From: Cyanophora paradoxa CCMP329
Taxonomy: Eukaryota > Plantae > Glaucophyta
NCBI GenBank assembly: GCA_004431415.1
Contig: QPMI01000128.1
Span: forward strand, 1 to 44,802
Direction of reading: 5' to 3'
Length of the DNA stretch: 44,802 bases
The notes beneath the pieces are model-generated. The model worked only from the letters and a program-made list of their open reading frames with translations, was not told the origin of the DNA and searched no databases. How positions within the stretch are numbered: the first letter of the stretch is position 1; every line of letters starts with the position of its first letter. Below are positions 20,971 through 43,200 of the stretch, piece after piece. The translations under genes and the position numbers were made by a program.

Positions 20971-22105
20971 TCAGACACCGAATGGGAAACTGTGAATGCC
21001 GTCGTCAAATATTTTCCGTTTGCTATCGAGTTGGTTTAGAGCCACCCTTCTGCTCTCCAAGTCATATAAGTTGTGGTCTTGTCGTTGCTTGTTTCTTACT
21101 GTTACTGTTTTTGTGATGCCTTCAAATAGACATTTCTTAAAATCATCAAAGTGAATTTCTTTCGAAGAAGTCCCCGACATCTTTACTTTTTCGTTGGTCT
21201 CAGTTCTGAAAGCGTAAAGTTTCGATCTCAGACCTACATACTCTACGATCTTTGCATTTGGAAACTCATTTTTATATTTACCAGGAACCATGCGATTCTC
21301 GAAATTCATTAGAGGATGTGATTTATCATAGTTACTTCTATCGAGATGTTCACCTATCTCTTTCATATCTTCGTTGAGATTCTTGGTTTTCAGGAACAAA
21401 CAAAACGAATCGGTATCGTGAAACAGTAGTTTAGCTGAGTCCCATTTCTTCCTGATCACATCATAGAAGAATTGATAATTATGTAGTTTCGCGAAATCCA
21501 AAACGAAAGCGCCAATTGCTACGGGTTTATCTAAGTTTACATGCTTCGAATACATTTCAAACGCTATCGCATTTTCGTTTATTACATTGGTTGCCTTGAT
21601 AAGAGGACTTGCTGCGTATTTCTTACACAATTTCTCACTATTAGCGATCTTGACAGTTGAGCGACCCCTACAAGATTCCAAGCATTTTCCATAAATTGCA
21701 TTGTTCATTAGTTTGAAAAAGTCACTTTCAAAAGTGTTAGTTGATTCGTGGCGTAGAAGAGTATTTAGACCAATATAAGATTTCATGAATGGTGAGGTTG
21801 CAAATGAGAGAACTTTATGTATCTTAGTAATAATTACACCTTTTTCGACGATGTAGTTAAGAAGAGGTCGAGCAATCACGTACTTATATTTAGGTGTAAA
21901 AGACGCTGTGAGTTTGGGGTCTTTGCTAATCTTCTCACCTGTCATTTCTAAAAGTTTTCGTTGATAATCTCCGAGCATATCTTTGGTAATCAATTCTTTA
22001 TTCACAATGAGTGGGAAATCATAATGATCTTCAAGGAATGTCGGGTATTCAAGATCAACTTCAATAAATGCACTTCGCCCTTCAACCTCTTTAAGTGCCT
22101 CTGTG
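20971..22105 (-). pseudogene. 3' half of the outer element's protein-primed family B DNA polymerase, disrupted by insertion
   Basis: FIEVDLEYP, motif B FFKLMNNAIYGKCLE, motif C FHDTDSF, GKYKNEF and VGLRSKLYAF. The reading frame is cut at the TSD at 22101-22105. Confidence 0.93.
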
Positions 22106-22495
22106 AGCTCAGCTTGGCGCGGTGTCTCCAACAATTAAATCCGCGGATCCTTACCATTCACCGTAACAGCACCGAATCTAATCGAAAATCACCGTAAGGC
22201 TCAGTGTCACGATCGATAATTTCGGTTTCACGACCGATCTTCATCGATTCACTCGATCCAATTCATCTTTTTATGCGCGGTGTCTCCCACAATTACGCAC
22301 GATTTCGCACGATACACAGTGAGACGACCACTGCACGATCGATAACCGCACCATTTACCGTCGTAAAGAGAATTCGTCTTTTTTCGCGCGGTGACTTCGT
22401 TAAGTCGGCAGAATGCCTCTTCTCCCACGATTCACAGTAACTTTTAACCAAAAGTTTAATAAAAATAAATCATGCACGACTTCTTAGATTATACT
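22106..22495 (+). repeat. Left terminal inverted repeat of the inner PLV
   Basis: Reverse complement of 39901-40280; starts with AG. Confidence 0.95.
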
Positions 22496-23522
22496 TTCTT
22501 CTCACAACATTACTTCGGTTCGGTTTGATTCCTTCTTTCTTCAACCTTTGATTAACTGTATTCGTTTTCTTTACTCTTGTTATTCGTTTTTGCGATGGAA
22601 TCTTAATGACTTCATTAACTTTCACTTTCTGTAATTCTTGCTTCTTGAAGCGTCGCTTAACTTCCTTCTCGTCCCCATCCATATCTTCCAACACTTTGAA
22701 TCTATTCCCATCAGACCTTCCAACTTTATAAACCTTTTGACTAAACCTCGCACCTTCCTTTTCAAATGCACTCTTCTTACCTTCTAACACTCGAACAGTA
22801 TCACCTGGTTTAACATCGACTCTCTCATTTCCCTTCACGTTATTATTGTGAACAGTATCCCGAAGGTAAATATATAGTTGTTTATCTTCGTTAGAATACA
22901 CTGTATTTGGTGAATCATTCTTCAAGGCACTATGGGGTGAATTGTTATAAATGGCGAGAACTTCGGTCACTAAATCAATCCACTTACTTGTCCCATTCGA
23001 TGTCATTGCCTTCCGTAAATACTGCTTGAAAGTCCTGGTGAATCGATCGATAATTCCGAGTTTATCACCAACTGTAATGTGTTCATCCTTAGCGACATCG
23101 GTATACAATCGCACCCCATGTTCTCCACACCAATTGCGATACATTGCGCTGGAAAACTCATTATCTCCCGATAGAGCAGCAACTTTACCTGCGTCCTGTT
23201 TGAATCGATTTAGAATACTTGGGATGTTCTCGTTCGTTTTGAAAGGATACACGAACGCCTTTCTGCTCAGAATATCAACAAAACTAATCATCTTAAAAAT
23301 ACCATTGTTTGCAGTTTGAAATCCTTTGAAATACATAATATCTACTTGGAAGGAACGTGGTTTCGCAACAATCCTTAGGAATGATTTAGGCTTTTTCGGT
23401 TTCTTGAATATCTGATGCACTTCTGAGTTTAAAAAGCGTTTTTTCAATTCTTCCTCATCAAAGTTTACTTTATCATTAATCAATTTCTGGCGATACTTCT
23501 TGTAAGATAACACGTTATCCAT
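22470..23522 (-). CDS. rve-type integrase of the inner PLV
   Basis: FQVDIMY, FVDILSRKAFVYP, LSGDNEF, LGIIDRFTRTFK (third acidic residue is D), YNNSPHSAL. Confidence 0.9.
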   Translation of the reverse strand: MDNVLSYKKYRQKLINDKVNFDEEELKKRFLNSEVHQIFKKPKKPKSFLRIVAKPRSFQVDIMYFKGFQTANNGIFKMISFVDILSRKAFVYPFKTNENIPSILNRFKQDAGKVAALSGDNEFSSAMYRNWCGEHGVRLYTDVAKDEHITVGDKLGIIDRFTRTFKQYLRKAMTSNGTSKWIDLVTEVLAIYNNSPHSALKNDSPNTVYSNEDKQLYIYLRDTVHNNNVKGNERVDVKPGDTVRVLEGKKSAFEKEGARFSQKVYKVGRSDGNRFKVLEDMDGDEKEVKRRFKKQELQKVKVNEVIKIPSQKRITRVKKTNTVNQRLKKEGIKPNRSNVVRRKYNLRSRA

Positions 23523-26500
23523 TATTGAGCAGCGCAGTTACATCTAATATGTGACAGGAAACAATTTTTGGTAGTATGGGGCAACGCATTATTGATTCGA
23601 TCAATAGAAATTACGTTCAGATCGAAGTCCATACCTCCATAACAACGAAGACAGTGACCATATTGCTTGCCGTAGCGTTTCTTGCACCACTCCCAATTGA
23701 CATAGTCCTTCTCATCAAACGGTCTGTTTGCCTTCTTGTCTTGCTCCTTGTACTGCTCAATTCTCTCGCTGAACTTCTTCATGTTCACAACGTGTTCTGC
23801 CCACTCATACCCATCATGGTAAATCTTCACACGACTTAGCTCGGTAGTTCGGGTGATTGCTGTGTAGAACCATTCCGCAGAAACGAAGGGCGCACCCGCT
23901 TCATAGATCACCACATTACCGCTCTTGCAATCGATTGTATCACCCTGAATCACGTGACAGGTATAAGCGTAAGGAAGTGAGAAATATCTCATTGCAGGTG
24001 GGTCTAATGTGATCACTTCCTTTGTAGCGATATCTTCGATGACGAACTCTTTGTCGTCATATGCCTTGATGGTGTACGTAAATCCATTGTGAATAGTCAC
24101 ACCATTTTTCACGATCCTTTGCTTTGCGACAATCTCCACACCTTTCGCGAAAATCGGGACATCTTCCCCGTAGTTCAATTTATGCAATTGCAGGTTGACT
24201 TCCGCAGCCTTGCGATTGGTGTACACTATCGCCCTGTCATCTTTCCCCAAAGTATCGACCGTTTCAAACCTGTACTTTTTAATGACATCGGGAACACTCA
24301 ACCGATTCTCGAAGAGATCCTTTTTTATTTCCTCGACAGTATCACGGTCTTCATGGGTCTTGTGACGCTTATTAACCTTCAATACTAACTCGTTCTTGAA
24401 CAGGAGACGCAGAATGTATGAGTAGTATTCTTTTTGGTCAACCGTCATATCCTGAATGGGCGGATTTTGGTGTGGGTCACCTGTGGCGATGTAGACCTTA
24501 TCCGGGAACAACACTTCCATAATGTATGCAAGCGCCGCCAATTCTGGAACTGTGAATTGACAGATTTCGTCGATAACGATGCAGTCGTACTCAACCAATC
24601 CGGAAGCATTACCACCCACAATCTCGTCCATGTTTGAATCGTCGACTTTTAGATGCAGAGCATCGTAGATGGTCTTAACATTTGCAAGACCATGTTGTAA
24701 CTTCATGTCGCGAATCCTCTTATTTGTCGGAACAATGAACAGGGGATTTTGGAAACGCTTACCAAACTGAACACCAATGTAGGTCTTTCCCACTCCTGGA
24801 ACGACACCTAATATAATCCATCGCTTCTGAGCAGCAAGAGTTTCGCAAATTGCCGTGGTATTATACTCATCAACTACCGAGTAAATAATGTGATTCGACT
24901 TCTCTAATTGCACGAAGTTCTCCTCGCGCTCCAATTTCCCGTAGTGAATGCGCTTGAAATTAAACTCCTTATTGTTCCCGATATACTTCTTTGTGAAATT
25001 GGGGCAATGCTTGATGCTGAATTCACCAATGTTGTCGTAGCTGTGACGGTCGAAACTCACAAGAGGGATCGGATCACAAGAGGTCGTGTAGACACAATCA
25101 GTATTAACAGAGACTGGATTAAGTCCTTTCTTACTGAGTTCGATGCACTTCTCGTATAGATTCATTCTCATAAGAGAATACATGAGATTGTGAAACGGTA
25201 GGAACCCATCAGTAAGAAACTTTTCTGCTACTTGATTCACATAGTAGATGCACGGTTCTGTGATTTCTTCCTCTGCGATGACGTAACAGGTTGGGTCATA
25301 CGATGCTGGATCTTTACCAAACACGTATGGTTTTACCTCTCCGCCATATTGCTTTTGGAATTCAATCGCATCGTCACGCTTGTTAAAGATCGTGGTCTTT
25401 ACTTTGTGGTTCTTCTGTTTTCCTATTTGCCCAATATTAGCAACAAGCATCTGCTTCTTGTCTGTTGGGTCAAGGTCACTCTCCATGATTTGCTTAATCA
25501 CGTCGCCTGCATAGTTTGGAACCAATTTATATGGTCGAAGAACCCCCTTAATCGTAATGTCCTCTTTCAGATCCTCGTAGTATTTTTTGAGAACCATACC
25601 TGGGATGACATTGTACCGTGAATCGATAAGCATGCGCTTATAACGGTCGTAGATGTTCAGTTCGTATTTCGTTCCATCTGCATTTTTCATCGGTTTGAAA
25701 TACTTTGATTTCAACTGAACGTAGTAGAAGTTGTACTTTTCGATTTCCTCAGCAGAAGTGATCGTGGTCTTCTGGAAATTATCGAATTTACTAATTACTG
25801 GGACGAATTCAATCTGTTTTGCAATAATTGCAGGATAGGCTTTGCACATGTCGTGTTCGTAGATATTCTCGCTCCACCCAATCTCATCAATGGTCTCCTT
25901 CTCCAAATCAAAGAACCCGCGCAGGGCAGTCTGTGAACCAATGCGGAACGCTGTTGAAGTTTGGTCATTGTACGTACTCTTGTTAGCATTGTTAACAAGA
26001 CTCAGATACATTTTCAGATTGAGCCGCTCGAATTTCTCACGATATTCAGCGTCCTTGAATTTCACCGCATAAGCAGTCTCCACATCCGTATCTGAACCGG
26101 GTGGGGTAACCGTTATGCTCTTCTCACCGTATGTGAAATGAATGTGTGTAATCTTCCGCATTGGGGAGAATCCCGCGTGAACCTGGTAGTTCACATCCAC
26201 AATGAACTCTTTCAGAAGATCGTCCAAGAACCCACTGTAACAGATTGAAATTTTACTCTGGCTCTTCATCTCCTCCGAATTGATGATCTTCACGATATCC
26301 TCAGGAGTTGCAGCAAATTCTCGATGTTTTCTTTGCTTGATAATCTTGAATCGCGACCCCACCGTAAGATTCGTGTCAGAGTTTGACTTCGATCCGTTGA
26401 AAGAGTGAGTGAGAGATTTGAGATTCTCGTTCAGAAGGTATAAGTGACCATTTTCGATTTTCACATAGGCGACCGATGGTGTGAGGTGGGTATTCCTCGT

Positions 26501-27607
26501 TTTCGGTTTGAAAGTGAGTTCAGGTATCTCGGTCTTGTCGTCTTTGTCGATGGTAACCATCCCGATACGGTAAGTTGACAGAACCTTTTCTACAATTTCC
26601 TCAAATGTAAAGCCCCAATCATCACCTTCTACTGGGTCACGTCCACGAATCATTTTGAATATACCGTTGTGGCTCCAATCAACCGATTTATACTTGCCTT
26701 TGGAATTGGCTTTCTGGAACGCTTGGGCGAAGTGCATAACAAGAACATCAGGAACGCAGCGACCTACTTTGAAGTTGTCACCTCGTACGAAGAGTTCCCC
26801 CAATGTCTTTGCTTGTGGGTTGGTCTCAGTTCGCAGATACTTGGAGATGATCATTGGGGCATGTTGCGAATCCCGTAGTGCTTGCTGTTGTCTCGGTACA
26901 TACGCTTGATTGTCTGTGGTAATGATTCGCTCGAATGTGACAATATCCCCGTAAATATCATTTTGAACTTTAACGAAGAATCGGAAATCACGATTGCCCA
27001 CATTCGCTTGTGCGATCGCTAACATGAACTCTTGGATATTCTCAACACCCATCAGAGCTGGGAAGGTATTGAACGTGTTTTTGATTTTGTCAAGTGACTT
27101 CAACAGATCCTCTTTCGAACACTGAATCGCGAGAGGTTGGTTAGTGCTTGTCTTCTTCATCTCGAAGTAGAACATACCGCCATCCTCAACCACATTGGAA
27201 TTAGCGGGCAGGTTCGGGATCTTATCGGGTGCGATATCCTTGTAAACTCGGACATGCAGAGTTACCATATTTCCGGGTGAGTTCTGGATATACTCGCGAA
27301 GGTTATCCATCATTTCTTGGAAGGGATCCCGACGCTTGCGCTTCTCACGCTTCTCGATATTCTTAGCCGTCCTCTCCGCCTTTGCCTCCTTCTTCTGTTG
27401 CTTACGCTCAAACCGCTGATACAGCGAACGATTGATTTCCCTAATGATATCATCCAACTTGTCCTCTCGTGGTCGCTGGTAAGTCACCACATCAAGAAAC
27501 TCTTCAAACTTCTCACGGTTGATCTTGTCGTCTACAAACGCTTGCATAGACTTCGCCACAATCTCTTGCTTCTTCTTTCTCAGCCTTAAATTCGATGCTC
27601 GCGGCAT
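23522..27607 (-). CDS. Fusion of a divergent PolB, an SF1 (RecD/Pif1-like) helicase and a C-terminal HNH-like zinc domain (1361 aa)
   Basis: Pol motifs: A EHDMCKAYP, B KQMLVANIGQIGK, C SVNTDCVY. Helicase motifs: GVVPGVGKT, IVIDEI, ATGDPHQNPP, YAYTCHVIQGDT, YTAITR. C-terminus CLRC...SIDRINNALPHTTKNCFLSHIRCN. Confidence 0.88.
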   Translation of the reverse strand: MPRASNLRLRKKKQEIVAKSMQAFVDDKINREKFEEFLDVVTYQRPREDKLDDIIREINRSLYQRFERKQQKKEAKAERTAKNIEKREKRKRRDPFQEMMDNLREYIQNSPGNMVTLHVRVYKDIAPDKIPNLPANSNVVEDGGMFYFEMKKTSTNQPLAIQCSKEDLLKSLDKIKNTFNTFPALMGVENIQEFMLAIAQANVGNRDFRFFVKVQNDIYGDIVTFERIITTDNQAYVPRQQQALRDSQHAPMIISKYLRTETNPQAKTLGELFVRGDNFKVGRCVPDVLVMHFAQAFQKANSKGKYKSVDWSHNGIFKMIRGRDPVEGDDWGFTFEEIVEKVLSTYRIGMVTIDKDDKTEIPELTFKPKTRNTHLTPSVAYVKIENGHLYLLNENLKSLTHSFNGSKSNSDTNLTVGSRFKIIKQRKHREFAATPEDIVKIINSEEMKSQSKISICYSGFLDDLLKEFIVDVNYQVHAGFSPMRKITHIHFTYGEKSITVTPPGSDTDVETAYAVKFKDAEYREKFERLNLKMYLSLVNNANKSTYNDQTSTAFRIGSQTALRGFFDLEKETIDEIGWSENIYEHDMCKAYPAIIAKQIEFVPVISKFDNFQKTTITSAEEIEKYNFYYVQLKSKYFKPMKNADGTKYELNIYDRYKRMLIDSRYNVIPGMVLKKYYEDLKEDITIKGVLRPYKLVPNYAGDVIKQIMESDLDPTDKKQMLVANIGQIGKQKNHKVKTTIFNKRDDAIEFQKQYGGEVKPYVFGKDPASYDPTCYVIAEEEITEPCIYYVNQVAEKFLTDGFLPFHNLMYSLMRMNLYEKCIELSKKGLNPVSVNTDCVYTTSCDPIPLVSFDRHSYDNIGEFSIKHCPNFTKKYIGNNKEFNFKRIHYGKLEREENFVQLEKSNHIIYSVVDEYNTTAICETLAAQKRWIILGVVPGVGKTYIGVQFGKRFQNPLFIVPTNKRIRDMKLQHGLANVKTIYDALHLKVDDSNMDEIVGGNASGLVEYDCIVIDEICQFTVPELAALAYIMEVLFPDKVYIATGDPHQNPPIQDMTVDQKEYYSYILRLLFKNELVLKVNKRHKTHEDRDTVEEIKKDLFENRLSVPDVIKKYRFETVDTLGKDDRAIVYTNRKAAEVNLQLHKLNYGEDVPIFAKGVEIVAKQRIVKNGVTIHNGFTYTIKAYDDKEFVIEDIATKEVITLDPPAMRYFSLPYAYTCHVIQGDTIDCKSGNVVIYEAGAPFVSAEWFYTAITRTTELSRVKIYHDGYEWAEHVVNMKKFSERIEQYKEQDKKANRPFDEKDYVNWEWCKKRYGKQYGHCLRCYGGMDFDLNVISIDRINNALPHTTKNCFLSHIRCNCAAQ

Positions 27608-28423: not shown

Positions 28424-29188
28424 TTAACGACGGTAGCCTGGACGAATGCCCAACTTAGCGAACCCCGAAACCATCGGCGCCGCATTGGAAATCGAGTTAA
28501 GTGGGTCAGATTGCGATGTAGCCACCCTCAGGATTGATTTATTAAGCACCGGCAAATCGGTTTTGTTCGATTCCTGATAATCGATAGTCTTAGCGATTAA
28601 TTCAGTCGGTGATTCCTTGACAACCTTAATGGGATCAGGTAGCACATCAAAAGTAACTTCGGGTTTCTTCTCTACCTTCTCTTTGGTTATAGGTTGCTCT
28701 TTGATCTTCTTCTCTTTTTGTGTCTCATCGGCGATTCCCTCAATGAGACTTTTAGCGTGTTGGTATGTGATCGTTTTTAGACCGCCTGTTACCGCTCTAA
28801 TAAAGTAACGGTTGCGGTGGTCTTTCTCAGAATAGGTTGAGTATAGACGTTCACCGCCATCGAGGAGTTTAAGAAGGGTCGACGATGTCGCTACCTTCTC
28901 AGTGGTCGATGATTTGAACTGACCCTTTTTAATTCCGCGCTTTGCACCGGGCATACGATTAAGCGGGACTTGATTAACAAGGGCGTTATCATCATGCACA
29001 TCTTTTGTTGATGCTTGTGTATATTGGTTTCTGTCTTTGTGAACGTCACGATCAATGTCACCATTACCATACGCTGCAACACCCTTGGATTTCTTGTACC
29101 AATTCCTTCCTTTCATTTCACCATCGCCAACGTCCGCTTCCACCGCTGGTTTGGCTAAGAAATTCTTAGGTTGAGTCTTGCGAGGCAT
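28424..29188 (-). CDS. Lysine-rich hypothetical protein (possible core protein)
   Basis: ~254-aa ORF starting MPRKTQPK, directly downstream of the penton gene. Confidence 0.6.
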   Translation of the reverse strand: MPRKTQPKNFLAKPAVEADVGDGEMKGRNWYKKSKGVAAYGNGDIDRDVHKDRNQYTQASTKDVHDDNALVNQVPLNRMPGAKRGIKKGQFKSSTTEKVATSSTLLKLLDGGERLYSTYSEKDHRNRYFIRAVTGGLKTITYQHAKSLIEGIADETQKEKKIKEQPITKEKVEKKPEVTFDVLPDPIKVVKESPTELIAKTIDYQESNKTDLPVLNKSILRVATSQSDPLNSISNAAPMVSGFAKLGIRPGYRR

Positions 29189-29220
29189 TTGAAATAACAC
29201 AACAAAAATAATTTACAAAA

Positions 29221-30123
29221 TTACATATTACGGGAGAACGGCAAGTAAACGCCTTCTAACTCTTTTATGACGTTTTTCAATGCCTTCTTTGTCAGATCCT
29301 TGTCATCTTGTGTTATCAGTTCAAGAGTCATCGACCAATCAGTGGTAATATCGGTTTCTACACCATTCCAATACGTGAGACGCACTTTCAGTGTTTCAAC
29401 TTCTACTTCCCCATTCTGCTCATGCAAGATCATAGAGTTATTCGATGAATCATATTTCAGAAGACTACCTACCGTTTGGTCGATCTCAATTTTAGCAAGC
29501 GCTTTATCGTCGCTGGTGTTCTTGCTTACGTAATTGCCTTTGAAGGGGTCAACATGTAGAAGGATGTAAGAATTGAACAGAAGATCAAGTGGTATTACGC
29601 TATCGACGTAATGGTTGTAAGTGATTGAACCAATCTCAACTGGCGCATCAAGTGGAGCGGAAGCATAACCATTTTCCGAACTTGCAGGTGTAAGATCAGG
29701 GAAACCAAGGAAGTTCGCTAAGATCCTACTACCAAATCGTAGGTTAAATACTGCATCCGACATGAACCTTAGAGATATGGTAACAGGATCGTATGTCACA
29801 TGGAAATGGCGAGTGTAGGTAGTTCCAACTGCACCATATGACTGTGAGGCGAGTTTTGCATTTAGTAGATTCACCAAACTATCTGTTGTGTATGTACCTT
29901 TCGTAATAATATTACTTCTGGTCTTAATCACATTTGCAGCATCGTAAGTAGATGTAATGAGCGTTCCATTTTCGCTGAGATTGTAGATGTTGTTGAACAT
30001 TTCGAAATTGGTAACGCGACACGCTTTAACCTTCTGGATTGCATGGGGAAGTTTGTAAGTAAAGTTTGTTGGGGTTCCATCATCTCGGTCTCTGGAATCA
30101 ATATTAAGATAATGACGCGTCAT
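29221..30123 (-). CDS. Minor capsid (penton) protein, PLV/virophage type
   Basis: N-terminal YLNIDSRDRD..TPTNFTYKL, middle LANFLGF, YILLHV, and C-terminal LKVRLTYWNG...DWSMTLEL. Confidence 0.85.
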   Translation of the reverse strand: MTRHYLNIDSRDRDDGTPTNFTYKLPHAIQKVKACRVTNFEMFNNIYNLSENGTLITSTYDAANVIKTRSNIITKGTYTTDSLVNLLNAKLASQSYGAVGTTYTRHFHVTYDPVTISLRFMSDAVFNLRFGSRILANFLGFPDLTPASSENGYASAPLDAPVEIGSITYNHYVDSVIPLDLLFNSYILLHVDPFKGNYVSKNTSDDKALAKIEIDQTVGSLLKYDSSNNSMILHEQNGEVEVETLKVRLTYWNGVETDITTDWSMTLELITQDDKDLTKKALKNVIKELEGVYLPFSRNM

Positions 30124-30175: not shown

Positions 30176-31402
30176 ATGTCGCTTGCTGGGACAACTTTAA
30201 AGGAACTCCTCGTTACTCCCGGATCGGATCAAATTTATCTATCTCCCGGTCTTCAAATCGGAACCAACCCCAAGTATAAGCCGTTCCTTGAACAAGTCCG
30301 TCCACGCGGTAATACCTTTGGGTTTAAGACGACCGCTTACTTCGATCTCCCACGCAAGCAACTCCTCAGTGGCGTTTCGCTTTATTTCAAAGTGACCACT
30401 GGTGGTGGTGTTGCTTGCACTCTTCCCAATGGCGGCGCTTCATTCATCAATGAGATCCGCTTCGTACATGGTGGGTTTAAGTACATCATCCCCGGTGATT
30501 GGATTACTGTGAATGCCCTTATTGATACTGATCATTCTACCATGGGTAGTCTGCATGCTTCTCTTGGTTTCTTCAAGGAAATCGAACGTGACAGCACCAA
30601 TGAATCAATGGAGTACATTGTAAGAATTCCCGCGCAATTCTGGGATGATGCCTATTTCCCTCTTTGCGTTCTGGCGGATATGCCCACGATTGAGGTTGAT
30701 TTCCGCGATGTTGGAATAGTCGAAGTCCCTGCTGGTGGATCGGCAATCATTGCAGACTGTTCCCTCATCTGTCAATTCGTTAATATTGCTTCTGCGGAGG
30801 CTGAGACTCTGTTAAAGACGGCAAATGAGCAAGGCGGTATTCGTATCCCTATTACTGAGGTGATCCACAAGAAGACTCGTGCGCTGAAAACTGCCGATGC
30901 TGGGGAAACCGTCGAGGTGACGCTTGCTAATGTTTCTGGTCTGGTTCACAGTGTTCTGATGACGGTACGTGAGGTAAACAAACTCAATACTTACACTCAC
31001 TCTGACTTTTGTGGTCACGTTTCGGATGTTAAAATTGATCAGTTCCAAATCTTCCACAACAACCGTTCGCTCGATATTTCCAACAAACCAATTAGCGGTT
31101 TCCTCTCCGCTATTAATCACATTCCTACTCATTATAAGGGTGTTACAGTTGGTAATGTCTCTTATGGATTTGAGGCTGGTAATGTTTACGGAATTGTTCT
31201 CAGCAAGAGCGGCAAGGATTCCCTCCACAACTCCGTCATGGGATACCAAGATTTCTTCAACTCTTCAAGTTCGTACATGGATCTGACTGTTTCCGGTTGC
31301 ACTGATGCGGCGCCGGTTCAGGTAGATATTTACGCGCTCCGTCACAATGTCATGGTTCTCAATGGCTATAACATTTCCACACTGAAAGTTTCTAACTTCT
31401 AA
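30176..31402 (+). CDS. Double jelly-roll major capsid protein (PLV/NCLDV-like)
   Basis: 408 aa, beta-rich. FGFKTTAYFDLPRKQLLSGVSLYFKV and YIVRIPAQFW...FPLCVL...IEVDF match DJR MCP patterns; VDIYALRHNVM near the C-terminus. Lies between penton and ATPase. Confidence 0.82.
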   Translation: MSLAGTTLKELLVTPGSDQIYLSPGLQIGTNPKYKPFLEQVRPRGNTFGFKTTAYFDLPRKQLLSGVSLYFKVTTGGGVACTLPNGGASFINEIRFVHGGFKYIIPGDWITVNALIDTDHSTMGSLHASLGFFKEIERDSTNESMEYIVRIPAQFWDDAYFPLCVLADMPTIEVDFRDVGIVEVPAGGSAIIADCSLICQFVNIASAEAETLLKTANEQGGIRIPITEVIHKKTRALKTADAGETVEVTLANVSGLVHSVLMTVREVNKLNTYTHSDFCGHVSDVKIDQFQIFHNNRSLDISNKPISGFLSAINHIPTHYKGVTVGNVSYGFEAGNVYGIVLSKSGKDSLHNSVMGYQDFFNSSSSYMDLTVSGCTDAAPVQVDIYALRHNVMVLNGYNISTLKVSNF

Positions 31403-32998: not shown

Positions 32999-34239
32999 TT
33001 GATCGAGCTTGAGCTCTCTTTTACAACGCGCCCCGGCCTCTTCCCCCTCCGTTCCGAAATCCCGTCCGCGGGATCCGAACCGGGGATCTTGGCTCGTAGA
33101 GCAACAGCTCTACCAACTGAGCCAAGAGGGCCGTTCCGATGTGAGACTCGCGTCTCGGCGCCTGGTGCGCCACTGCCGGGAATTTGATCGAGCTTGAGCT
33201 CTCTTTTACAACGCGCCCCCGGCCTCTTCCCCCTCCGTTCCGAAATCCCGTCCGCGGGATCCGAACCGGGGATCTTGGCTCGTAGAGCAACAGCTCTACC
33301 AACTGAGCCAAGAGGGCCGTTCCGATGTGAGACTCGCGTCTCGGCGCCTGGTGCGCCACTGCCGGGAATTTGATCGAGCTTGAGCTCTCTTTTACAACGC
33401 GCCCCCGGCCTCTAAGGGATTTCGGAACGGAGGGGGAAGAGGCCGGGGGCGCGTTGTAAAAGAGAGCTCAAGCTCGATCAAATTCCCGGCAGTGGCGCAC
33501 CAGGCGCCGAGACGCGAGTCTCACATCGGAACGGCCCTCTTGGCTCAGTTGGTAGAGCTGTTGCTCTACGAGCCAAGATCCCCGGTTCGGATCCCGCGGA
33601 CGGGATTTCGGAACGGAGGGGAAGAGGCCGGGGGCGCGTTGTAAAAGAGAGCTCAAGCTCGATCAAATTCCCGCAGTGGCGCACCAGGCGCCGAGACGCG
33701 AGTCTCACATCGGAACGGCCCTCTTGCTCAGTTGGTAGAGCTGTTGCTCTACGAGCCAAGATCCCCGGTTCGGATCCCGCGGACGGGATTTCGGAACGGA
33801 GGGGGAAGAGGCCGGGGGCGCGTTGTAAAAGAGAGCTCAAGCTCGATCAAATTCCCGGCAGTGGCGCACCAGGCGCCGAGACGCGAGTCTCACATCGGAA
33901 CGGCCCTCTTGGCTCAGTTGGTAGAGCTGTTGCTCTACGAGCCAAGATCCCCGGTTCGGATCCCGCGGACGGGATTTCGGAACGGAGGGGGAAGAGGCCG
34001 GGGGCGCGTTGTAAAAGAGAGCTCAAGCTCGATCAAATTCCCGGCAGTGGCGCACCAGGCGCCGAGACGCGAGTCTCACATCGGAACGGCCCTCTTGGCT
34101 CAGTTGGTAGAGCTGTTGCTCTACGAGCCAAGATCCCCGGTTCGGATCCCGCGGACGGGATTTCGGAACGGAGGGGGAAGAGGCCGGGGCGCGTTGTAAA
34201 AGAGAGCTCAAGCTCGATCAAATTCCCGGCAGTGGCGCC
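32982..34239. repeat. Palindromic tandem array of ~186-bp units (~2.3 forward, ~4.4 inverted; switch at ~33413-33416)
   Basis: Near-identical units with a period of 185-186 bp; each holds a PBS copy and a 72-nt tRNA-like segment. Confidence 0.95.
33534..33605 (+). ncRNA. Degenerate tRNA-like module with Pol III box A/box B (other copies: + 33718-33788, 33903-33974, 34089-34160; - 33060-33131, 33246-33317)
   Basis: GCCCTCT-TG-GCTC-AGTTGGTA-GAGC (perfect D arm, box A) ... GGTTCGGATCCC (box B-like) ... GGACGGGA. Acceptor, anticodon and T stems are only partly paired. Confidence 0.65.
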
Positions 34240-34518
34240 TGTCGCGTGCGAGATTAGTGTGTCTAATCGTGCGCGCGGGAAGCCCGTGCGGAGTGCAAGC
34301 TCGGCAGGGCGGGGAATGGCGAGTGTCACTGCTGTCGTCGCTAAGATCCAACTCACTGGGTGTACCCGTCCAGATACGGCGTACCCGACACGAATACAAG
34401 TGACCGCGGCGCTCTAACTAGCCTAGGCGCCGTCGGTCCAGCAGCTCGAAGGCTGACGTGATCTAGAGCCTAGCGGCTCACATATAAATGAGCATCCGCT
34501 ATAATGTCGGATGCGACA
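34240..34518 (-). repeat. Third, inverted copy of the LTR
   Basis: Reverse complement of 32701-32980, with a PBS on one side and a PPT on the other. Confidence 0.95.
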
Positions 34519-34882
34519 ACTCCTCCTCTCGGATCCCGCGTCCGCGCGGGTCTAAATAAATACATATCAACCGGCTACTGCCGGGAATCGAAAAAGGCTC
34601 AACGTCCGTCCGTGGCCGGCAACTGCCGGGAATAGAAAAGACACCAAGTCCGGCTATGTACATGTCCATGCCCGCGTCGACTGCCGGGAATAGAAAAGAC
34701 TGATGCCCGGCAAGTGCCGGCACGACTCCAGCGTGTAGTGCCCAGGGGCGAGGTCCAACTTCGGGCCGGCGGCCCAGGCAACCCGCACGAGGCGAGCGGA
34801 AGGGACGGAAGCCGAGGGGGCCCTGCCCTCATCGCGATTGTGCAGCACGTTAGCTGCAAAGGCACACGCTGCAACAGCAACG
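34519..34882 (-). repeat. Inverted copy of the element's PPT and 3' untranslated region
   Basis: Reverse complement of 39032-39386. Confidence 0.92.
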
Positions 34883-35358
34883 GAGGCGCCATTCTGCCGG
34901 AATCGAACCTTCAAGGGTCGCTGGACTTCCAGGCTCTGCCCGCGCCGCGCGCCTCGCCGCGCCGCCTCGCATAAGCTTAGAGAGATCCGGGACGAGCTTT
35001 CCGGGCGACCGCCACTTGTGGCGTGCTACGCTGCACACTTCGGCCGCGTCGCCTCTGGGCGGCTGATTGTGCTTCGGAAGTGACTCTAGTGTCCCTCGCG
35101 GGCTTCGGTGCATCCCCAGACCGAAGCGCACGCACGAGCTCTCGCGAGAGTCTCAATCATTGTCTGTGTCCTTCGCCGGTTGCACGCTTCGCGTCGCAAA
35201 CTGTGCCCCGGAGTCTGCCAGCGGCAGTTCTCTGAGTGTCCCTGAGTCGGTTCTCGCACGCCACGAGAAGACCGTGTCCCGGATCTGCAGTGCGCTGCAG
35301 ATCAAATCTTGCGCCCTGGCATTCTGTTCTCGTGGCTATACGCTGCAAAGAGAGCAAT

Positions 35359-36913
35359 ATGTCGAACACTTCTGAACTGATCAGTTCTGAAGTCCGTAGC
35401 CGGCTGTCTGCCCTCGCGCACATCGAGCCCGCCCAGGGCTATGCTGCTGTGCATGTGCAGCAACTCGCTGCTGGCTCCGCTGCGGCGGATGATGATCCCG
35501 TGCGGATCGCATTCCTGCCTGCAAATCCTCGCCTCGCCGATGGCGACCGGTTCCGGAAGGACGTGCGGAACTTCCAGTCGTCCCTGCCGACTAAGTACTT
35601 GTTTGGCCCGATTCTGCCGGTAGCCAGGAGTACTCAAAGTCAGAGGCGCTAGCCGGAGTGATTGTTGGGCGGATCCGCCCCGGAGCTCTCCGCGCTGAGA
35701 TTGAGCGCAAGCGCGACCTCTATGAGGCCTCTGTCACTGCCCTCGAGCATGACCGCACCAGGCTCGCTCGTCTCGAAGCTGTCCGGCAGACCTGCGGTCC
35801 GCCGAGGATGATGCTGCTATCCTCGCGCTGCAGCAGAGCTGCGTGCGTGATCAGGCCTCATCGTGGCCGTGCGCGACTCGTACTTGCGTGCCCCCGGGCT
35901 GCTTGACACGATCACTGCGTGGATTCATGAGACCCGCCCGCACGCGGCCCGCCGGCTCTCACTGAGCCGTACACGGGTGAGGACCCCGCTCGTGGCACGA
36001 CTGGTTCTTGCCCCTCGTACGGCACACGCTGCCGCCGGCCAGCAGTTTGCTGCGTACTACGCGGACTGCCTGCGCACCGCGCTCGAGGCCCGCTCGACGA
36101 GCGAGGACCTGAATATCAGAACCTTGATGTTCGGATGGCCGGGTTCGCCCAGGCGAACGAGCGCACGCTGCGCGAGTTCCTCACGGCGCTGCGGCAGCGC
36201 CTCCTCGCCAATAACGGCGCTATCTCGCCGCTTGAGCTTGACAATATTTTCGTCGAGCAGTGCAAGCGCCACGGCTGCCGCGCCGTGTTCCCGCCTGCGC
36301 TGGCAGCTGCCGATCGCGAGCTGCCCGAGGCAAAACGGACCCGTATCCTGCAGGCACAGTTTGCCGAGGATGAGTCCTCGTCCGCCGGCACCCCTGCCGC
36401 TGCACGAGCCTCGAGCTCCTTGGCCCTGCTGAGCCTCGGATGCAAATTCCACGGCCCAGCCCTCGATTTCTGCACGTGGGTCCTCTTGGCCGTGCAGTCC
36501 CGCTCGCCTGCCGCTGTTGCGGAGGTGCTGCGGCGCATGTCCGAGCTCGGGTACCCGGAGTACCCCCCTCAGACTGCTACGGGTGCTCGGATGACCCCAG
36601 CGTCCCGTTGAGGCGCGACGTCATTGGGCAAATGTGTGCCCCAAGCGCACCCCGTTCGCCCCAGTACGCCCTGGGTCCGCCGCGGCCAGTACTATCGGCA
36701 AAAGCGATCCCAAGAGGATGCTGCCAACAAGCACGAGTACTGGTCCGACGAGGAAACCAGGACCCAGACGAAGTCTGCGGTCGCTGCGGCGAGGCAGGGC
36801 ACCACCACAGTGCCTGCCCGACCCCCCACACGGGCTGCTCGCTCGAGCTCTGCGCTTCCCGCGCCTCTAGCTCAGCGGCTCCACCCGCGCGCCCTGCGGC
36901 GGAGCGTGAGTGA
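35359..36913 (+). CDS. gag: Gag-like protein with CCHC zinc knuckle, frameshifted in this sequence
   Basis: A chain of overlapping + strand ORFs begins at MSNTSELISS and includes helical segments (ERTLREFLTALRQRLL). It ends with CGRCGEAGHHHSAC (CX2CX4HX4C) at 36776-36817 and lies downstream of the PBS. Confidence 0.7.
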
Positions 36914-39374
36914 GCAAGTGCACCAGCTGCACTAGGGTCTGGCTGGCTTGGGCAGCCGCCAGAAAAGCCCTGCTCGTAACCGCGATCCGATTTTCGCGGA
37001 GCCTGGGCCTCCCCTGCGAGAGCCCCATGTGTCGCTGTAATAAGCGGCCCATATACCTGCCTCTGAGCAGGGTGTATATTTGTACATTTGTACATAATTT
37101 CAGACGTCGGGGACGACGTCTTCCGAGAGGAGGAGTGAGCACGGGCATGCTGCACGAGCAGTGCAAGCGCTGCCGCTCGCCTCCCGCCCCGAGGCTTGCT
37201 TGAATCTGTGGCCGCTGGCCAAGATCGAATAGCACTCGCGAAAGAAGAGCCCCAATCGCGTGCTTTCGAGCACCCTGAGCGGCCACGGTGCCCCTCTTTC
37301 CGAGAGGAGGAGTACCTCTTTCGCTGAAGCCTGCGAAGAGGCGCACGGCCGTGCCGCAATTGCGAGCCCTCCTGCTTCCCTCAATTTAGATCCGTGGCCG
37401 GTGGCCGAGATCTGATCTCAACCCCAAGCGGGTACCAGTCTTTCGAGAGGAGGAGTCCCTCCGAGACTCTCTCGTCGAAAGCCTGCGATTTCGCGCGGCG
37501 CACTGCAGTTGCTGAGTGCGGCCATGGGCCTTGCGAAATCCAGAAATTAAAAGTGGCCTCAGGCCTTGCGGTCAGAGCTTCAAAGGCTTGAGCTGATCAT
37601 GAGCCGAGCCGCCAAGCTGCAGCTGCAGCTGGCCCTCGCGGGAGGCTTTGAGCTCGAACCCCCACACTTGAGCGAGCAAGCGGCCTTGCTGCCGTTGCGA
37701 GATGAGACGTGATCACGGAGCCTGAGCTCGGGATGCACCCTCAAGAGAAGCTTGATGCATATATGCTGAGGCACGATGCCCAGCGGCGACGCCTGATGGC
37801 ATGCCGTGAGCTTGACAGGCGGCCCGTGACCCCTGCAAAAATCGTGAGCCTCGACTTGAGCACAAGTGCCCTCGAGAGCTCGAGCCTGAAATAAGTCCTG
37901 GCGCGCCCCAGGCGGCAGCAATAGCAGCTCTGCCATGAGCTTTGCAGTTCTTTGAACTCAAGTCTGGTGACGCCGCCAAGTTGGCGCCAGGCCGCGCGGT
38001 CTGTTCCGGATCATCGGATCCGGACTGAACGTTAGCGGGCGAGGGGCCAGTGCCCCGCCCAAAGACTGGTGAACTGCCGACGAGTTGCATCCAGGCGGCA
38101 CACTGTGGCTGCAGCCGATGGTGCGACGGGCTGCGAGCCCTGCTCACAAGCTAAGAGCTTTGAGACCGGCGGCCAGCCTGTTGAGGCGGCGCCAGAAGGA
38201 CCCCACGATCGTGAGTCTCGTCTCGCATGTGGCCGGCCCGGCCCCAGGCGCGGTCGTGACGGCGGGTGGTTCTGGCCAGGAGCGGCTTGAGAAAGCCGGC
38301 TCCAAGCCGCTCCCGCCCCACACGAGGCGAGACAAGAAGCGGCGATGCTGCCTCCGGCGAGCGAGCACAAGAGGCACCCGTGAAGGGTTGGCTGAGAAGG
38401 CCAAGCGCCGCGAATATCGCGAAAGTCCCGAGCAGAAGTGGTGCGCTGCGGGCGGCCGTTGTCCTTGAGCACAGCTCGGCACGGTGACAGGGCGGAAGAC
38501 CTTGCAAAGACTAGCCGAGCCCTAGGCACGCGCTTGCGTCTGCAGAAGGGTCGGGGCGGCTGTGACGCCGGTTCTGCCCGGGTACAGCGACAGGGATGAC
38601 AAATTCCCCTCCGTGTAAACCTGGTGTGGTACCAGGGCGCCTTGCGTCGGCAGGGTACACGCAGGCGGTCGTGACCGGGTTCCTGCCCCGGGTACGACGA
38701 CGGGGAACAAAAAATACCCCAGCAGGCTCCGCACCAGGACGCTTGGTGGCGGACCGCCTGAGAGGGCCACGTCCCTTTTAATAGATGTCACCCGCGGTCG
38801 GGCAGCGGTACTCCCGTCGCGCAATGGCGTGGAAGGGCACCTTGTGGCGCGTTAGCCTCGCCCTGGAGATTCTAGCTCCACCGCCGTCGGGGGATCCGAT
38901 CCGACGCCGTGATAATGCAGTGAAGGCACGGTGTTGCCTGAGCAGCGGCGCTAGTCGAGCTGCTTAGCCCTAAGTTTTGGACGGGCATTTCGCTGTGGGC
39001 TGCTGAGCGCTGTCGCGAGCGCTGCGCCCCGCGTTGCTGTTGCAGCGGTGCCTTTGCAGCTAACGTGCCTGCACAATCGCGATGAGGGCAGGGCCCCCTC
39101 GGCTTCCGTCCCTTCCGCTCGCTCGTGCGGGTTGCCTGGGCCGCCGCCCGAAGTGGACCTCGCCCCTGGGCACTACGCTGGAGTCTGCCGGCACTTGCCG
39201 GGCATCAGTCTTTTCTATTCCGGCAGTCGACGCCGGGCATGACATGTACATAGCGACTTGGTGTCTTTTCTATTCCCGGCAGTTGCCGGCCACGGACGGA
39301 CGTTGAGCCTTTTTCGATTCCCGGCAGTAGCCGGTTGATATGTATTTATTTAGACCCGCGCGGACGCGGGATCC

Positions 39375-39385
39375 GAGAGGAGGAG
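39375..39385 (+). promoter_or_regulatory. Polypurine tract
   Basis: GAGAGGAGGAG, one base upstream of the 3' LTR. Confidence 0.85.
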
Positions 39386-39386
39386 T

Positions 39387-39667
39387 TGTCGCATCCGACA
39401 TTATAGCGGATGCTCATTTATATGTGAGCCGCTAGGGCTCTAGATCACGTCAGCCTTCGAGCTGCTGGACCGACGGCGCCTAGGCTAGTTAGAGCGCCGC
39501 GGTCACTTGTATTCGTGTCGGGGTACGCCGTATCTGGACGGGTACACCCAGTGAGTTGGATCTTAGCGACGACAGCAGTGACACTCGCCATTCCCCGCCC
39601 TGCCGAGCTTGCACTCCGCACGGGCTTCCCGCGCGCACGATTAGACACACTAATCTCGCACGCGACA
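39387..39667 (+). repeat. 3' LTR (281 bp)
   Basis: Direct copy of the 5' LTR, followed by the TSD CAACT. Confidence 0.95.
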
Positions 39668-39900
39668 CAACTCTCGTTATATATACCGCATATATACACA
39701 AAACCTCCGTATCTCGTTTGGTCAAACGGAATTTCTGGTGAAAATGTGTGTATATATGCACATATATACACGGAGACGTCGACTCTATCGCCGGCAGTCA
39801 AGTTGAGTCAACCGATAAACGCATGTAACTCTTCACCAACTGCTCCGTTTCTAATTCTGAAAACAGATTCGGAATCGTCGGACGCCCTCTTCAAGGTTCG

Positions 39901-40280
39901 AGTATAATCTAAGAAGTCGTGCATGATTTATTTTTATTAAACTTTTGGTTAAAGTAACTGTGAATCGTGGGAGAAGAGGCATTCTGCCGACTTAACGAAG
40001 TCACCGCGCGAAAAAAGACGAATTCTTACTGTGTATCAAGCGGAATCGATCGTACAGTGGTCTTCATACTGTGTATCGAGCGGAATCTTGCGGAATTGTG
40101 GGAGACACCCGCATAAAAAGATGAGTTGGATCGAGTGAATCGATGAAGATCGGTCGTGAAACCGAAATTATCGATCGTGACACTGAGCCTTACGGTGATT
40201 TCGATTAGACTCGATGCTGTTACGGTGAATGGTAAGGATCCGCGGATTTAATTGTTGGAGACACCGCGCCAAGCTGAGCT
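39901..40280 (-). repeat. Right terminal inverted repeat of the inner PLV
   Basis: Ends ...GGAGACACCGCGCCAAGCTGAGCT, followed by CTGTG. Confidence 0.95.
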
Positions 40281-43200
40281 CTGTGATCTCTCCCATCGAT
40301 AATCTCCAATCGGTAGTGGTTGGCTAAGTACATAACCATAAAGATTATTCGCGTCCAACAATACTATGTGATCATCCGGTTCTTCTACTTTTGCATATCG
40401 TGTGGGCATGGTAGCAAATCCGCCGCGAATGGCTTTCTCAATAAATTCGTATTTCTCTACATCATCGATAAGTTCAATCTTAACTTTCGTATGTTTGAGC
40501 ATAGCGTCCCAGGATAAACCAGGTGCGCTAACGTAATGTGCGGGATCTAATCCATATTGAGAATATGCAAGTTTACGGAATTCTTCGAATTTAGACATAA
40601 GATCATCGACATTCTCACTTTGGAAATCCATAAAATGTGATGCATCTATGAATTTCCACATGCCCCATTGAAGGGATAGGTATTGATTAAAGTTCTTGCT
40701 TAAAATTTCAACACGTAGTTTATCGTCTTGTTGTGCGATCTTGCGGAATATCCCGTGTCCACATTCATCCATTTTCAACCACAATTGCTACTTTGCTTGT
40801 GTTTGAGATTCGGCGATGAAGGTTACAGTTTCGGCATGCTTTCCCGATAAAATCACCGGATTGGGACAATGATCGCGAACCGGGAAGTTTTCGTGGGTGA
40901 ATCTCTGAGAACAAATATAACAGTGTTTTGTTATCTTGTATTCTGCCTTTTGATCTTCAGTGAGTGGATGCATTGGGATATTTCTAAAAAGCGTTTCAAT
41001 TACTTCGGGTCTGATCTCTTGTAGAGTTGCAAAAGAGAACTGAGTGGATCATTTCCTTCAAAATGGTATAGTTTCATTTCTTCACCCATAACTCTCAGTG
41101 AGACTGCTTTAATCTCTCTTTTACTTCTCAGTGTATCTATTGCTACCGAATGATCTTCAATTTTAACATAACAGATCACAGGAAGCCAAACCGTTTTTCG
41201 TAGATGTTGTAGACGAATTCTATTGTACTTCCCGGCTTCGGACATTTGCCTTTGCTCTCCCTCCAATCGATACATCGGTTTGCTTCTGTATGTAGGTCTA
41301 ATTTCTCCTGAGTTCTGAAACGTGATAGACAGGTTTCACAATAGTAAATGCGCCCGTCACATGCTTTATCGAACGTGGTCTTTAAAAGACGATAAATGAC
41401 ATGATGTTATGTAGTGTCCCCTATCGTCTCGGTGTTTTCAATGAGTAAAAGGTTAATCTTGGTCTTTCGTCTTGGTTACTTGATTGATGAAGAGGATAAA
41501 AAACTGTTTCTCATTATCAGCACCGTAAATATTAATAGAGAGATCCGGGTTCAATTCTTCGAAACGATCGATTACCTCAGCATCACATGCTACCGGGAAC
41601 TGAATACCGTCAAAATTGAGTTCATTTAACCATCTGCGATATTGGTAAGGTTCGTTACTCTTATGTTTGTTAATGTCCTTCGATGAAGGTAAGCCAAAAT
41701 AGCATATTTAAAACAAATCTTGCCCATCGATATTTTTTACGTTTATTGTAGCTTTCTTGGATGCGATCCATTCGGGAGTTGCGAAATGTGCGGGATCTAA
41801 TCCATATTGAGAAGACACCGCGCATAAAAAGATGAATTGGATCGAGTGAATCGATGAAGATCGGTCGTGAAACCGAAATTATCGATCGTGACACTGAGCC
41901 TTACGGTGATTTTCGATTAGACTCGATGCTGTTACGGTGAATGGTAAGGATCCGCGGATTTAATTGTTGGAGACACCGCGCCAAGCTGAGCTCTGTGATC
42001 TCTTCCCATCGATAATCTCCAATCGGTAGTGGTTGGCTAAGTACATAACCATAAAGATTATTCGCGTCCAACAATACTATGTGATCATCCGGTTCTTCTA
42101 CTTTTGCATATCGTGTGGGCATGGTAGCAAATCCGCCGCGAATGGCTTTCTCAATAAATTCGTATTTCTCTACATCATCGATAAGTTCAATCTTAACTTT
42201 CGTATGTTTGAGCATAGCGTCCCAGGATAAACCAGGTGCGCTAACGTAATGTGCGGGATCTAATCCATATTGAGAATATGCAAGTTTACGGAATTCTTCG
42301 AATTTAGACATAAGATCATCGACATTCTCACTTTGGAAATCCATAAAATGTGATGCATCTATGAATTTCCACATGCCCCATTGAAGGGATAGGTATTGAT
42401 TAAAGTTCTTGCTTAAAATTTCAACACGTAGTTTATCGTCTTGTTGTGCGATCTTGCGGAATATCCCGTGTCCACATTCATCCATTTTATCAACCACATT
42501 GCTACTTTGCTTTGTTTTGAGATTCGGCGATGAAGGTTACAGTTTCGGCATGCTTTCCCGATAAAATCACCGGATTGGTGACAATGATCGCGAACCGGGA
42601 AGTTTTCGTGGGTGAATCTCTGAGAACAAATATAACAGTGTTTTGTTATCTTGTATTCTGCCTTTGATCTTCAGTGAGTGGATGCATTGGGATATTTCTA
42701 AAAAGCGTTTCAATTACTTCGGGTCTGATCTCTTGTAGAGTTGCAAATAGAGAACTGAGTGGATCATTTCCTTCAAAATGGTATAGTTTCATTTCTTCAC
42801 CCATAATCACTCTCAGTGAGACTGCTTTAATCTCTCTTTACTTCTCAGTGTATTATTGCTACCGAATGATCTTCAATTTTAACATAACAGATCACAGGAA
42901 GCCAAACCGTTTTTCGTAGATGTTGTAGACCGAATTCTATTGTACTTCCCGGCTTCGGACATTTGCCTTTGCTCTCCCTCCAATCGATACATCGGTTTGC
43001 TTCTGTATGTAGGTCTAATTTCTCCTGAGTTCTGAAACGTGATAGACAGGTTTCACAATAGTAAATGCGCCCGTCACATGCTTTATCGAACGTGGTCTTT
43101 AAAAGACGACTAAATGACATGATTGTTATGTAGTGTCCCCTATCGTCTTCGGTGTTTTCAATGAGTAAAAGGTTAATCTTGGTCTTTCGTCTTGGGTTAC

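Follow-up and report, generated by a model that had tools for sequence, protein, structure and literature searches.

Polinton-like viruses (PLVs) and virophages nested within one another, and GC-rich transposons within them, have been reported in other protists (bioRxiv 10.64898/2026.07.28.741278; PMC12220804), and virus-in-virus nesting of this class is already published. Mavirus and the endogenous mavirus-like elements (EMALEs) are reported to integrate with target-site duplications (TSDs) of 3-6 bp and without sequence specificity (PMC8547959). We describe a nesting of this kind in the glaucophyte Cyanophora paradoxa CCMP329, on contig QPMI01000128.1 (assembly GCA_004431415.1), of which positions 1 to 44,802 are the window analysed here. 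It has three levels that can be delimited to the base, a repeat in a virus-like element (the inner element) that itself lies in another (the outer element), and the empty site is recoverable from the same species. The inner element splits the outer element's gene for a protein-primed family B DNA polymerase (pPolB). We regard it as likely, with a probability of roughly 70%, that the integrase of this 18.2-kb element landed it opportunistically in AT-rich proviral DNA and that the polymerase was not targeted.

The split polymerase and its empty site

The two halves of the outer pPolB and the boundaries of the insert between them are the following:

20971..22105, minus strand: C-terminal half of the outer pPolB with motifs B and C, open reading frame (ORF) intact (homologue search, BLASTP)
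22101..22105: left TSD copy, CTGTG (sequence)
22106..22495: left terminal inverted repeat (TIR) of the inner element (self-BLAST, repeat finder)
39901..40280: right TIR of the inner element, full length (self-BLAST, repeat finder, sequence)
40281..40285: right TSD copy, CTGTG (sequence)
41998..44100, minus strand: N-terminal half of the outer pPolB, copy 2, which reaches the N-terminus (start approximate) and contains motif A (weak Pfam DNA_pol_B_2, BLASTP)

A number of observations confirm that the insert splits a minus-strand pPolB between motifs A and B, as had been proposed in an earlier, sequence-only reading of this DNA. First, the C-terminal half is an intact minus-strand ORF of 377 residues that ends at the left junction and has 9575 homologous proteins at E<=1e-3 in an exhaustive search; its conserved blocks correspond to motifs B and C of family B polymerases. 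Second, the best homologue of this half (P0001), an intact protein of 1083 aa with 47% identity, is aligned over its residues 727-1078, and in BLASTP the C-terminal half resumes at P0001 residue 728 (E=2e-103), while the N-terminal half matches residues 558-715 with 57% identity (E=4e-63) and ends at residue 715. Ten residues of the window occupy the 12-residue variable linker of P0001 between the halves. Since the halves abut on P0001 and the linker is filled, no polymerase sequence was lost. Third, the break comes 13-20 aa after the D/L/Y residues of motif A, which are invariant, and motif B follows ~120 aa further on. When 14 full-length homologues are aligned, the insertion point falls in a linker of 0 to ~60 residues, bounded by the D/L/Y of motif A and an invariant Gly, and all 14 share motif B (K..N..G K) and DTDS without variation. 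The Pfam family DNA_pol_B_2 is weakly matched by the N-half frames (E 1.4e-5 and 2.7e-5, the latter in copy 2); a pPolB profile gave no hits among PDB sequences, and a cluster look-up of six homologues returned no informative names. The frame of the N-terminal part continues for ~30 codons into the TIR and then meets a stop, so the broken copy cannot yield a complete polymerase.

The inner element, read from the sequence, extends over 22106-40280 (18,175 bp). It has TIRs at both ends, as in transposon-type insertions: self-BLAST and a repeat finder give inverted arms at 22105-22495 and 40281-39901, with 391 nt at 92% identity. CTGTG flanks it on both sides (22101-22105 and 40281-40285), which gives a TSD of 5 bp, with up to 7 bp as a possible reading in which the CT is common to the TIR end. 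Five flanking bases would agree by chance with odds of 1 in 1024, and the empty site described below, together with the CTGTG match, excludes such an agreement; a short target duplication and a single-copy empty site are both found, as for transposon-type insertion. A 13-nt motif, GCGCGGTGTCTCC, occurs at 22117 and 22275 in the left TIR. It stands 12 nt from each TIR tip, with an internal copy in addition, and its five matches in the window are all within the TIR arms (0.01 expected by chance). The TIR-end pattern had no match in IMG/VR. The span first proposed for the insert, 22090..42010, was thus right as to the nesting, which the TIRs and the TSD confirm, and wrong as to its end, since 42010 belongs to a second copy of the right junction; the corrected span is 22106-40280.

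Of the words sampled from 20500-23500, half or more occur in each of 20 sequencing runs of the same organism from 18 studies, and there was no RNA dataset among the runs listed with these words. We aligned Logan short-read contigs of four runs (X1, X2, X4, and X20) to 21500-41499; a second contig alignment covers 40150-42100 in three runs. The loose contig ends listed are 18 of 80 for 40150-42100 and 24 of 672 for 21500-41499. Uninterrupted copies, which the earlier reading had proposed to seek, were found in three of the four runs: in X1, X4, and X20 a contig passes from 22106 to 40291 over 5 intervening letters. This joint was not seen in X2, the run with the most fragmented contigs. Read by hand, the empty-site contig has one CTGTG, keeps the frame, and differs by one conservative amino-acid change, in agreement with the earlier observation that removal of the insert and of one CTGTG rebuilds a continuous frame. 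Furthermore, among the matches listed (best 18 of 80), contigs of the N-half flank extend leftwards into the C-half flank in two of three runs, with two contigs in X1 and three in X20 (median 44 letters), and 28 of 30 letters match window positions 22069-22098. These contigs imply that uninterrupted copies of the outer polymerase exist in the same genomes.

The third level lies inside the inner element:

32352..39809: insertion of 7,458 bp, a mostly GC-rich (~63%) high-copy repeat (contig joint, repeats)

In all four runs a contig joint, 32351->39810, omits this block, and it follows that other inner copies exist without the 7,458 bp; the inner element without them measures ~10.7 kb. The block sits in an intergenic tail of the inner element and has very high contig depth; inside it are 650-nt inverted repeats (34240-34889 and 39024-39667) and units of 186 nt that form a palindromic array. 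No Pfam family was found in its 12 ORFs, and there was no tRNA or Rfam match in it; the idea that it is an Ngaro-like retrotransposon was dropped given the lack of Pfam families in these ORFs. The repeat units at 33000-34300 look tRNA-like, and the tRNA and Rfam scans did not call them as tRNA genes. AT-rich palindromes are found near both ends of the block.

How the nesting probably arose

The window alternates between DNA of ~65% GC and DNA of ~39% GC, and its long open frames are located in the latter:

1 to ~8560: GC-rich flank
8561-32351: low-GC DNA
32352-39809: mostly GC-rich DNA
39810-44802: low-GC DNA, which runs off the right end of the window

In the reading that we favour, the integrase of the inner element would have inserted it, by cut-and-paste or copy-in, at a staggered 5-bp cut and with no site specificity, the ~39% GC provirus being an attractive or a tolerated target in a genome of ~65% GC. 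The order of events would be integration of the outer element, insertion of the inner element, and then arrival of the GC-rich repeat and duplication of the junction. We favour a chance landing because these same genomes also contain the gene in unbroken form. The broken outer copy would be one of roughly ten, and its loss could be covered in trans, so that the outer family would not be disabled. Chance insertion into AT-rich DNA was one of the two explanations offered by the sequence-only reading, and it is the one we hold to be likely.

Contig depths in X1 give a rough measure of these copies. The empty-site contig has a depth of 869 and the contig connecting TIR end and N-half one of 244 (a ratio of ~3.5), while inner-only contigs range over 265-380, the TIR tip reaches 707, and the rarest recurring variants lie at ~110. 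These depths correspond roughly to ~8 unbroken outer sites, ~2 occupied right junctions, and ~3 inner copies. Two occupied right junctions are the number that the window locus alone holds. With one readable locus, these rough depths suggest that the outer copies are mostly unoccupied and that the inner ends are for the greater part at other sites.

A number of points weigh against a chance landing. First, that reading rests on one readable insertion site. Second, copy number can be read only poorly from contig depth. Third, two of the key contigs are short on one side: the shorter side of the empty-site joint has only 27 letters, and in the occupied-junction contig the TIR side amounts to 30 letters, one below the bridging rule. 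Fourth, loose ends at the TIR tips with other flanks were found neither among the best 18 of 80 matches listed nor among the best 24 of 672. Fifth, that a replication gene was struck by an invader with its own replicase is what a competition model predicts.

This last point is the core of the explanation by targeted interference, in which the inner integrase would prefer the resident polymerase gene, disable a competitor, and supply its own replicase as a hyperparasite. The insertion does lie in a replication gene, between catalytic motifs, the inner element does have its own protein with a pPolB fold and a helicase, and the sub-terminal 13-nt repeats of the TIR suggest defined, if only predicted, integrase binding sites. 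We consider this explanation unlikely on several grounds: 1) it would be built on a single event; 2) the empty-site contig of X1 is ~3.5 times deeper than the occupied-junction contig; 3) by rough depth ~2 of ~6-7 TIR ends adjoin the site, and the window alone holds two; 4) the site, being a non-conserved linker, would be poorly suited to recognition; 5) related integrases are reported as non-specific (PMC8547959); and 6) literature searches listed no published proposal that an element aims at the polymerase of a resident one. The competition or replacement between viruses that the earlier reading had raised as the other explanation is not supported: the one insertion examined lies in a hypervariable linker, the empty site outweighs the occupied one (869 vs 244), and the related integrases are reported as non-specific.

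A bolder form of the same idea would make the inner element a parasite of integrated viruses, whose integrase homes to resident pPolB genes, silences their replication, and lets it ride on the fibres and lipase of the outer element. We find this quite improbable. If it were true, such a homing parasite would add a fourth trophic layer to that of host, giant virus, and virophage or PLV, with the GC-rich transposon parasitising in turn. The evidence for warfare between integrated viruses is weak at this locus, and one broken copy among ~ten fits random insertion into AT-rich DNA. The 20 runs from 18 studies constitute a natural population in which one could score whether the insertion is there and how far, if at all, the inner element favours polymerase genes; the stretch at the left junction that was sampled in them is largely made of two multicopy families.

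The right junction is present twice:

40286..41787, minus strand: N-terminal half of the outer pPolB, copy 1, a truncated duplicate with many single-base indels (repeat finder, short-read contigs)
41788..41812: 25-nt filler where the two duplicate copies join (read by eye)
41813..41997: second, partial right TIR (outer 181 nt, from the internal 13-nt motif) and CTGTG (repeat finder, self-BLAST)

In this tandem duplication of ~1.7 kb, 40103-41787 matches 41813-43507 at 98.4%, and each repeat runs from the outermost 181 nt of the TIR through CTGTG into 1.5 kb of the pPolB N-half. Only the first junction copy has the TIR in full; in the second, the TIR part occupies 41813-41992 and CTGTG 41993-41997. 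The filler is a reverse-complement copy of codons inside the pPolB N-half, with microhomology on its flanks, and abuts the internal copy of the 13-nt TIR motif. Between the two copies there are 23 indels, each of 1-3 bases, and a single substitution. Short-read contigs depart from copy 1 at 11 indel sites, each time to the copy-2 state. For five sites at which a base is missing from copy 2 they list no departure, and the frame of copy 2 breaks at these sites. The N-half frameshifts thus look like assembly errors and not like decay. More generally, indel errors are probable in the repeats of this assembly, where the short-read contigs of the four runs add or drop single bases (34700-39500 and 40290-43500), and because of such errors the apparent frameshifts in these two regions are not evidence of pseudogenes.

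Could the nesting, or at least the duplicated junction, be a repeat mis-join of the long-read assembly? The 23 small indels and the single substitution between the junction copies are the signature of unpolished long reads, both elements are multicopy and their short-read contigs fragmented, and no contig crosses 41787-41813 among the matches listed. Yet, as regards the nesting, the TIR and TSD geometry is exact, short-read 31-mers of X1 connect the TIR end with the N-half flank, and the words of 20500-23500 recur across the 20 runs. As regards the duplication, a 25-nt templated filler with microhomology resembles a real replication-based rearrangement, and a right-junction depth of ~2 units fits two copies. 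An artefact is, in our judgement, very unlikely.

Gene content of the inner and outer elements

From TIR to TIR, the inner element encodes an rve integrase, a replicase of 1361 aa, three ORFs without relatives, and an A32-type ATPase:

22470..23522, minus strand: rve-type integrase, 350 aa (Pfam rve, phmmer)
23522..27607, minus strand: replicase, 1361 aa, with an N-terminal region, a divergent protein-primed PolB fold, a superfamily 1 (SF1) helicase, and a Cys/His-rich tail (Pfam, fold)
28424..30123, minus strand: two ORFs of 254 aa and 300 aa, the latter a penton candidate by position only
30176..31402, plus strand: ORF of 408 aa, candidate major capsid protein by its position beside the ATPase
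31539..32261, plus strand: A32-type packaging ATPase (Pfam Pox_A32)

The integrase matches Pfam rve at E=0.0017, under the curated cut-off, and in phmmer it matches integrases of PLV-type contigs (18 of 25 IMG/VR loci); it shares 25% identity with the integrase of the outer element (E=2e-18). That the invader encodes its own polymerase-helicase, as the earlier reading had stated, is borne out by a phi29-like pPolB fold in residues 230-900 and by a Pfam-recognised helicase. Pfam finds AAA_19, AAA_30, and UvrD_C_2, which constitute an SF1 helicase, at residues 918-1258 and does not see the polymerase part. An AlphaFold2 model of residues 230-900, made from a 15-sequence alignment, has a mean predicted local distance difference test (pLDDT) of 74 and a predicted template modelling score (pTM) of 0.70. 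With Foldseek, its top nine matches in PDB are all phi29 polymerase (E 5e-9 to 2e-7), aligned over 502-535 columns of chains of 562-572 residues; in BFVD there are 40 hits at E<=1e-3, mostly pPolBs, with the mavirus polymerase at rank 2; and the ESM Atlas gives the same protein-primed polymerase lead. Profile-profile comparison with canonical pPolB was not significant (probability 0.4% and 0.1%), with a best path that aligns motifs B and C, and the pPolB identity of the replicase was therefore settled by fold alone. An Asp at the motif A position and a Thr-Asp at the motif C position are invariant in all 15 sequences. Given these residues and an alignment of phi29 length in the model, polymerase activity of the replicase is possible. 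Its tail (23522-23900, minus strand) has a Cys/His pattern, C..C ... DR.N...H ... C.C, in three of four aligned homologues. An HNH-like or zinc-binding nuclease module is a possible reading of this tail, in which Pfam detects no HNH domain.

Relatives of the replicase are few and distant: a word-seeded search gave three, at 23-28% identity, and nothing found exceeds 28%. Among 22 metagenome loci with such relatives, an rve integrase lies directly downstream in six, and most of the others are cut contigs; three loci carry an A32-like ATPase (L026 and L043 by phmmer, L045 by Pfam). In the inner element the replicase and then the rve integrase stand beside the TIR, a replication and integration module at one genome end, as in PLVs. 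The ATPase, also characteristic of PLVs, matches Pox_A32 at E=4e-12 (46.6 bits vs a cut-off of 22.8).

The capsid genes are candidates by position. The 254-aa and 300-aa ORFs had no Pfam or PHROG match and no homologue, and for the 408-aa and 300-aa ORFs the IMG/VR scan and word-seeded searches gave no relative. Relaxed Pfam and PHROGs searches with the capsid candidates gave noise only, and phmmer against the ORFs of 47 fetched loci nothing below E=0.04. For the 408-aa ORF, a single-sequence AlphaFold2 model reached a pLDDT of 29.7, and hhalign against a five-sequence PLV capsid profile gave a probability of 0.7%, vs 0.0-0.6% for seven control proteins. The related contig L026 has an ORF with a weak Capsid_N match at the corresponding position; BLASTP against the capsid-like ORF of L026 gave no better than E=0.22. 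With a replicase of at most 28% identity to its relatives and presumed capsid genes that lack detectable ones, the inner element appears, from its sequence, to be a little-sampled lineage.

The outer element runs from the GC boundary to beyond the window's right end:

8561..22105, minus strand: left arm of the outer element, low GC (GC fall from ~65% to ~39% at ~8560; Pfam; PHROGs)
9529-9927, minus strand: AdoMet decarboxylase (Pfam AdoMet_dc, E=6.6e-13)
12459-13976 and 14543-17257, minus strand: fibre genes (PHROGs down to 9e-30; Peptidase_S74)
17932-19491, plus strand: patatin lipase (Pfam)
19488-20540, minus strand: rve integrase (Pfam rve, E=5e-4, under the cut-off; phmmer)

Its pPolB and rve integrase are those expected of the Polinton/Maverick type. 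The integrase matches other integrases in phmmer down to 8e-38, in 18 of 25 IMG/VR loci, some of them directly after a related pPolB (L011, L005). In the 904-aa fibre (14543-17257), repeats of 19 residues (57 nt) and of 22 residues (66 nt), rich in His, Asp, Trp, and Pro, form arrays, and the matches of this protein to phage tail-protein PHROGs are confined to the parts that bear them. The left arm also includes two paralogues of 276 and 281 aa; the latter was considered as a capsid lead and set aside, as its only leads in the ESM Atlas were weak ones to fn3 and phage-tail proteins (0.91, low recognition). The 16.3 kb of the outer element inside the window yielded no capsid, ATPase, or protease gene and no TIRs or TSD of this element, which continues to the right of 44802. 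Since an A32-like ATPase accompanies a related pPolB in 7 of 25 IMG/VR contigs, we would expect, by analogy, a morphogenesis module upstream of the pPolB.

These contents bear on the suggestion that the nested pair is a working composite, propagated as a unit with the fibres and lipase of the outer element and the capsid, packaging ATPase, and replicase of the inner one. It is true that the outer arm in the window has fibres and a lipase and no recognisable capsid gene, that the inner element has the A32 ATPase, and that most long ORFs of both elements are open. Against this, the inner element retains both TIRs and the TSD and is still a discrete insert; its other copies, free of the 7.5-kb block, indicate that the family moves on its own; the outer element extends past the window, and a module of its own is probable given the ATPase found beside related polymerases; the 'capsid' genes of the inner element are positional candidates; and the pair would exceed 36 kb within the window alone. 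We hold a working composite to be highly improbable, and retain the opportunistic landing of a separate element.

Several other features were observed. The small S-adenosylmethionine decarboxylase of the outer element is an auxiliary metabolic gene. A 71-nt near-perfect palindrome (8561-8631) lies exactly at the boundary between GC-rich and low-GC DNA, where the outer element presumably has its left terminus. For some endogenous virophages and PLVs, a preprint on Halocafeteria discusses palindromes at the termini beside TSDs (bioRxiv 10.64898/2026.07.28.741278). A unit of ~250 bp occurs three times in direct orientation in intergenic outer DNA (8846-9098, 9267-9521, and 44188-44430; 74-82% alike), with a G-rich run (GGTGGGG...) opposite a C-rich run, and may be a shared promoter or regulatory module. 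In the GC-rich flank, TPR-like fragments are the only coding trace, and tRNA and Rfam scans of the whole window gave no match.

Comparison with known systems

Krupovic, Yutin and Koonin reportedly described, in 2016, replicases of a Tlr1-helicase type, in which a pPolB is fused to an SF1 helicase. In the inner replicase, fold and Pfam likewise place an SF1 helicase after a PolB-type domain within a single protein. As these replicases are described, the likeness extends to the C-terminal position of the helicase, a nuclease-like tail, and residence in a PLV-type element (PMC12721341). Two differences stand out: Tlr1-type fusions are described there as lacking an exonuclease domain and having an inactivated or truncated polymerase (PMC12721341), whereas the model of the inner replicase aligns with nearly the whole phi29 chain; and the tail is Cys/His-rich here and GIY-YIG in the Tlr1 type.

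The outer element, with a pPolB of ~1080 aa directly followed by an rve integrase (as in L011 and L005), is like the Polinton/Maverick and mavirus type, and its phage-like fibres resemble those reported for cryptophyte PLVs (PMC12220804). It differs from Polinton/Maverick in that fibre, lipase, and AdoMet-decarboxylase genes take up another 11 kb downstream of the integrase.

As here, the EMALEs of Cafeteria burkhardae are AT-rich elements in a GC-rich host, broken by GC-rich mobile elements of 6-7 kb (Ngaro), and the same account has them integrating by an rve integrase with short TSDs and no sequence specificity, and has their repeats troubling assembly (PMC8547959). The invader of the outer element is, in contrast, virus-like, with TIRs, integrase, replicase, and packaging ATPase, unlike the Ngaro retrotransposons; and in the 12 ORFs of the GC-rich block no reverse transcriptase or recombinase was found, again unlike Ngaro.

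The closest parallel to the nesting itself comes from Halocafeteria seosinensis, where small integrated dsDNA viruses with TIRs and TSDs are nested up to three levels, as at this locus (bioRxiv 10.64898/2026.07.28.741278). GC-deviant DNA transposons also lie inside these viruses, as the GC-rich block does inside the inner element, and sometimes break a replication gene (bioRxiv 10.64898/2026.07.28.741278). The section of that preprint on nesting makes no claim of competition. The host has a GC content of ~65% here vs 47% in Halocafeteria seosinensis, and the element lineages differ. The break of a replication gene in Halocafeteria seosinensis is placed, in the preprint's account, among transposon (Mutator-like element, MULE) insertions, whereas in Cyanophora paradoxa the pPolB is broken by a virus-like element.

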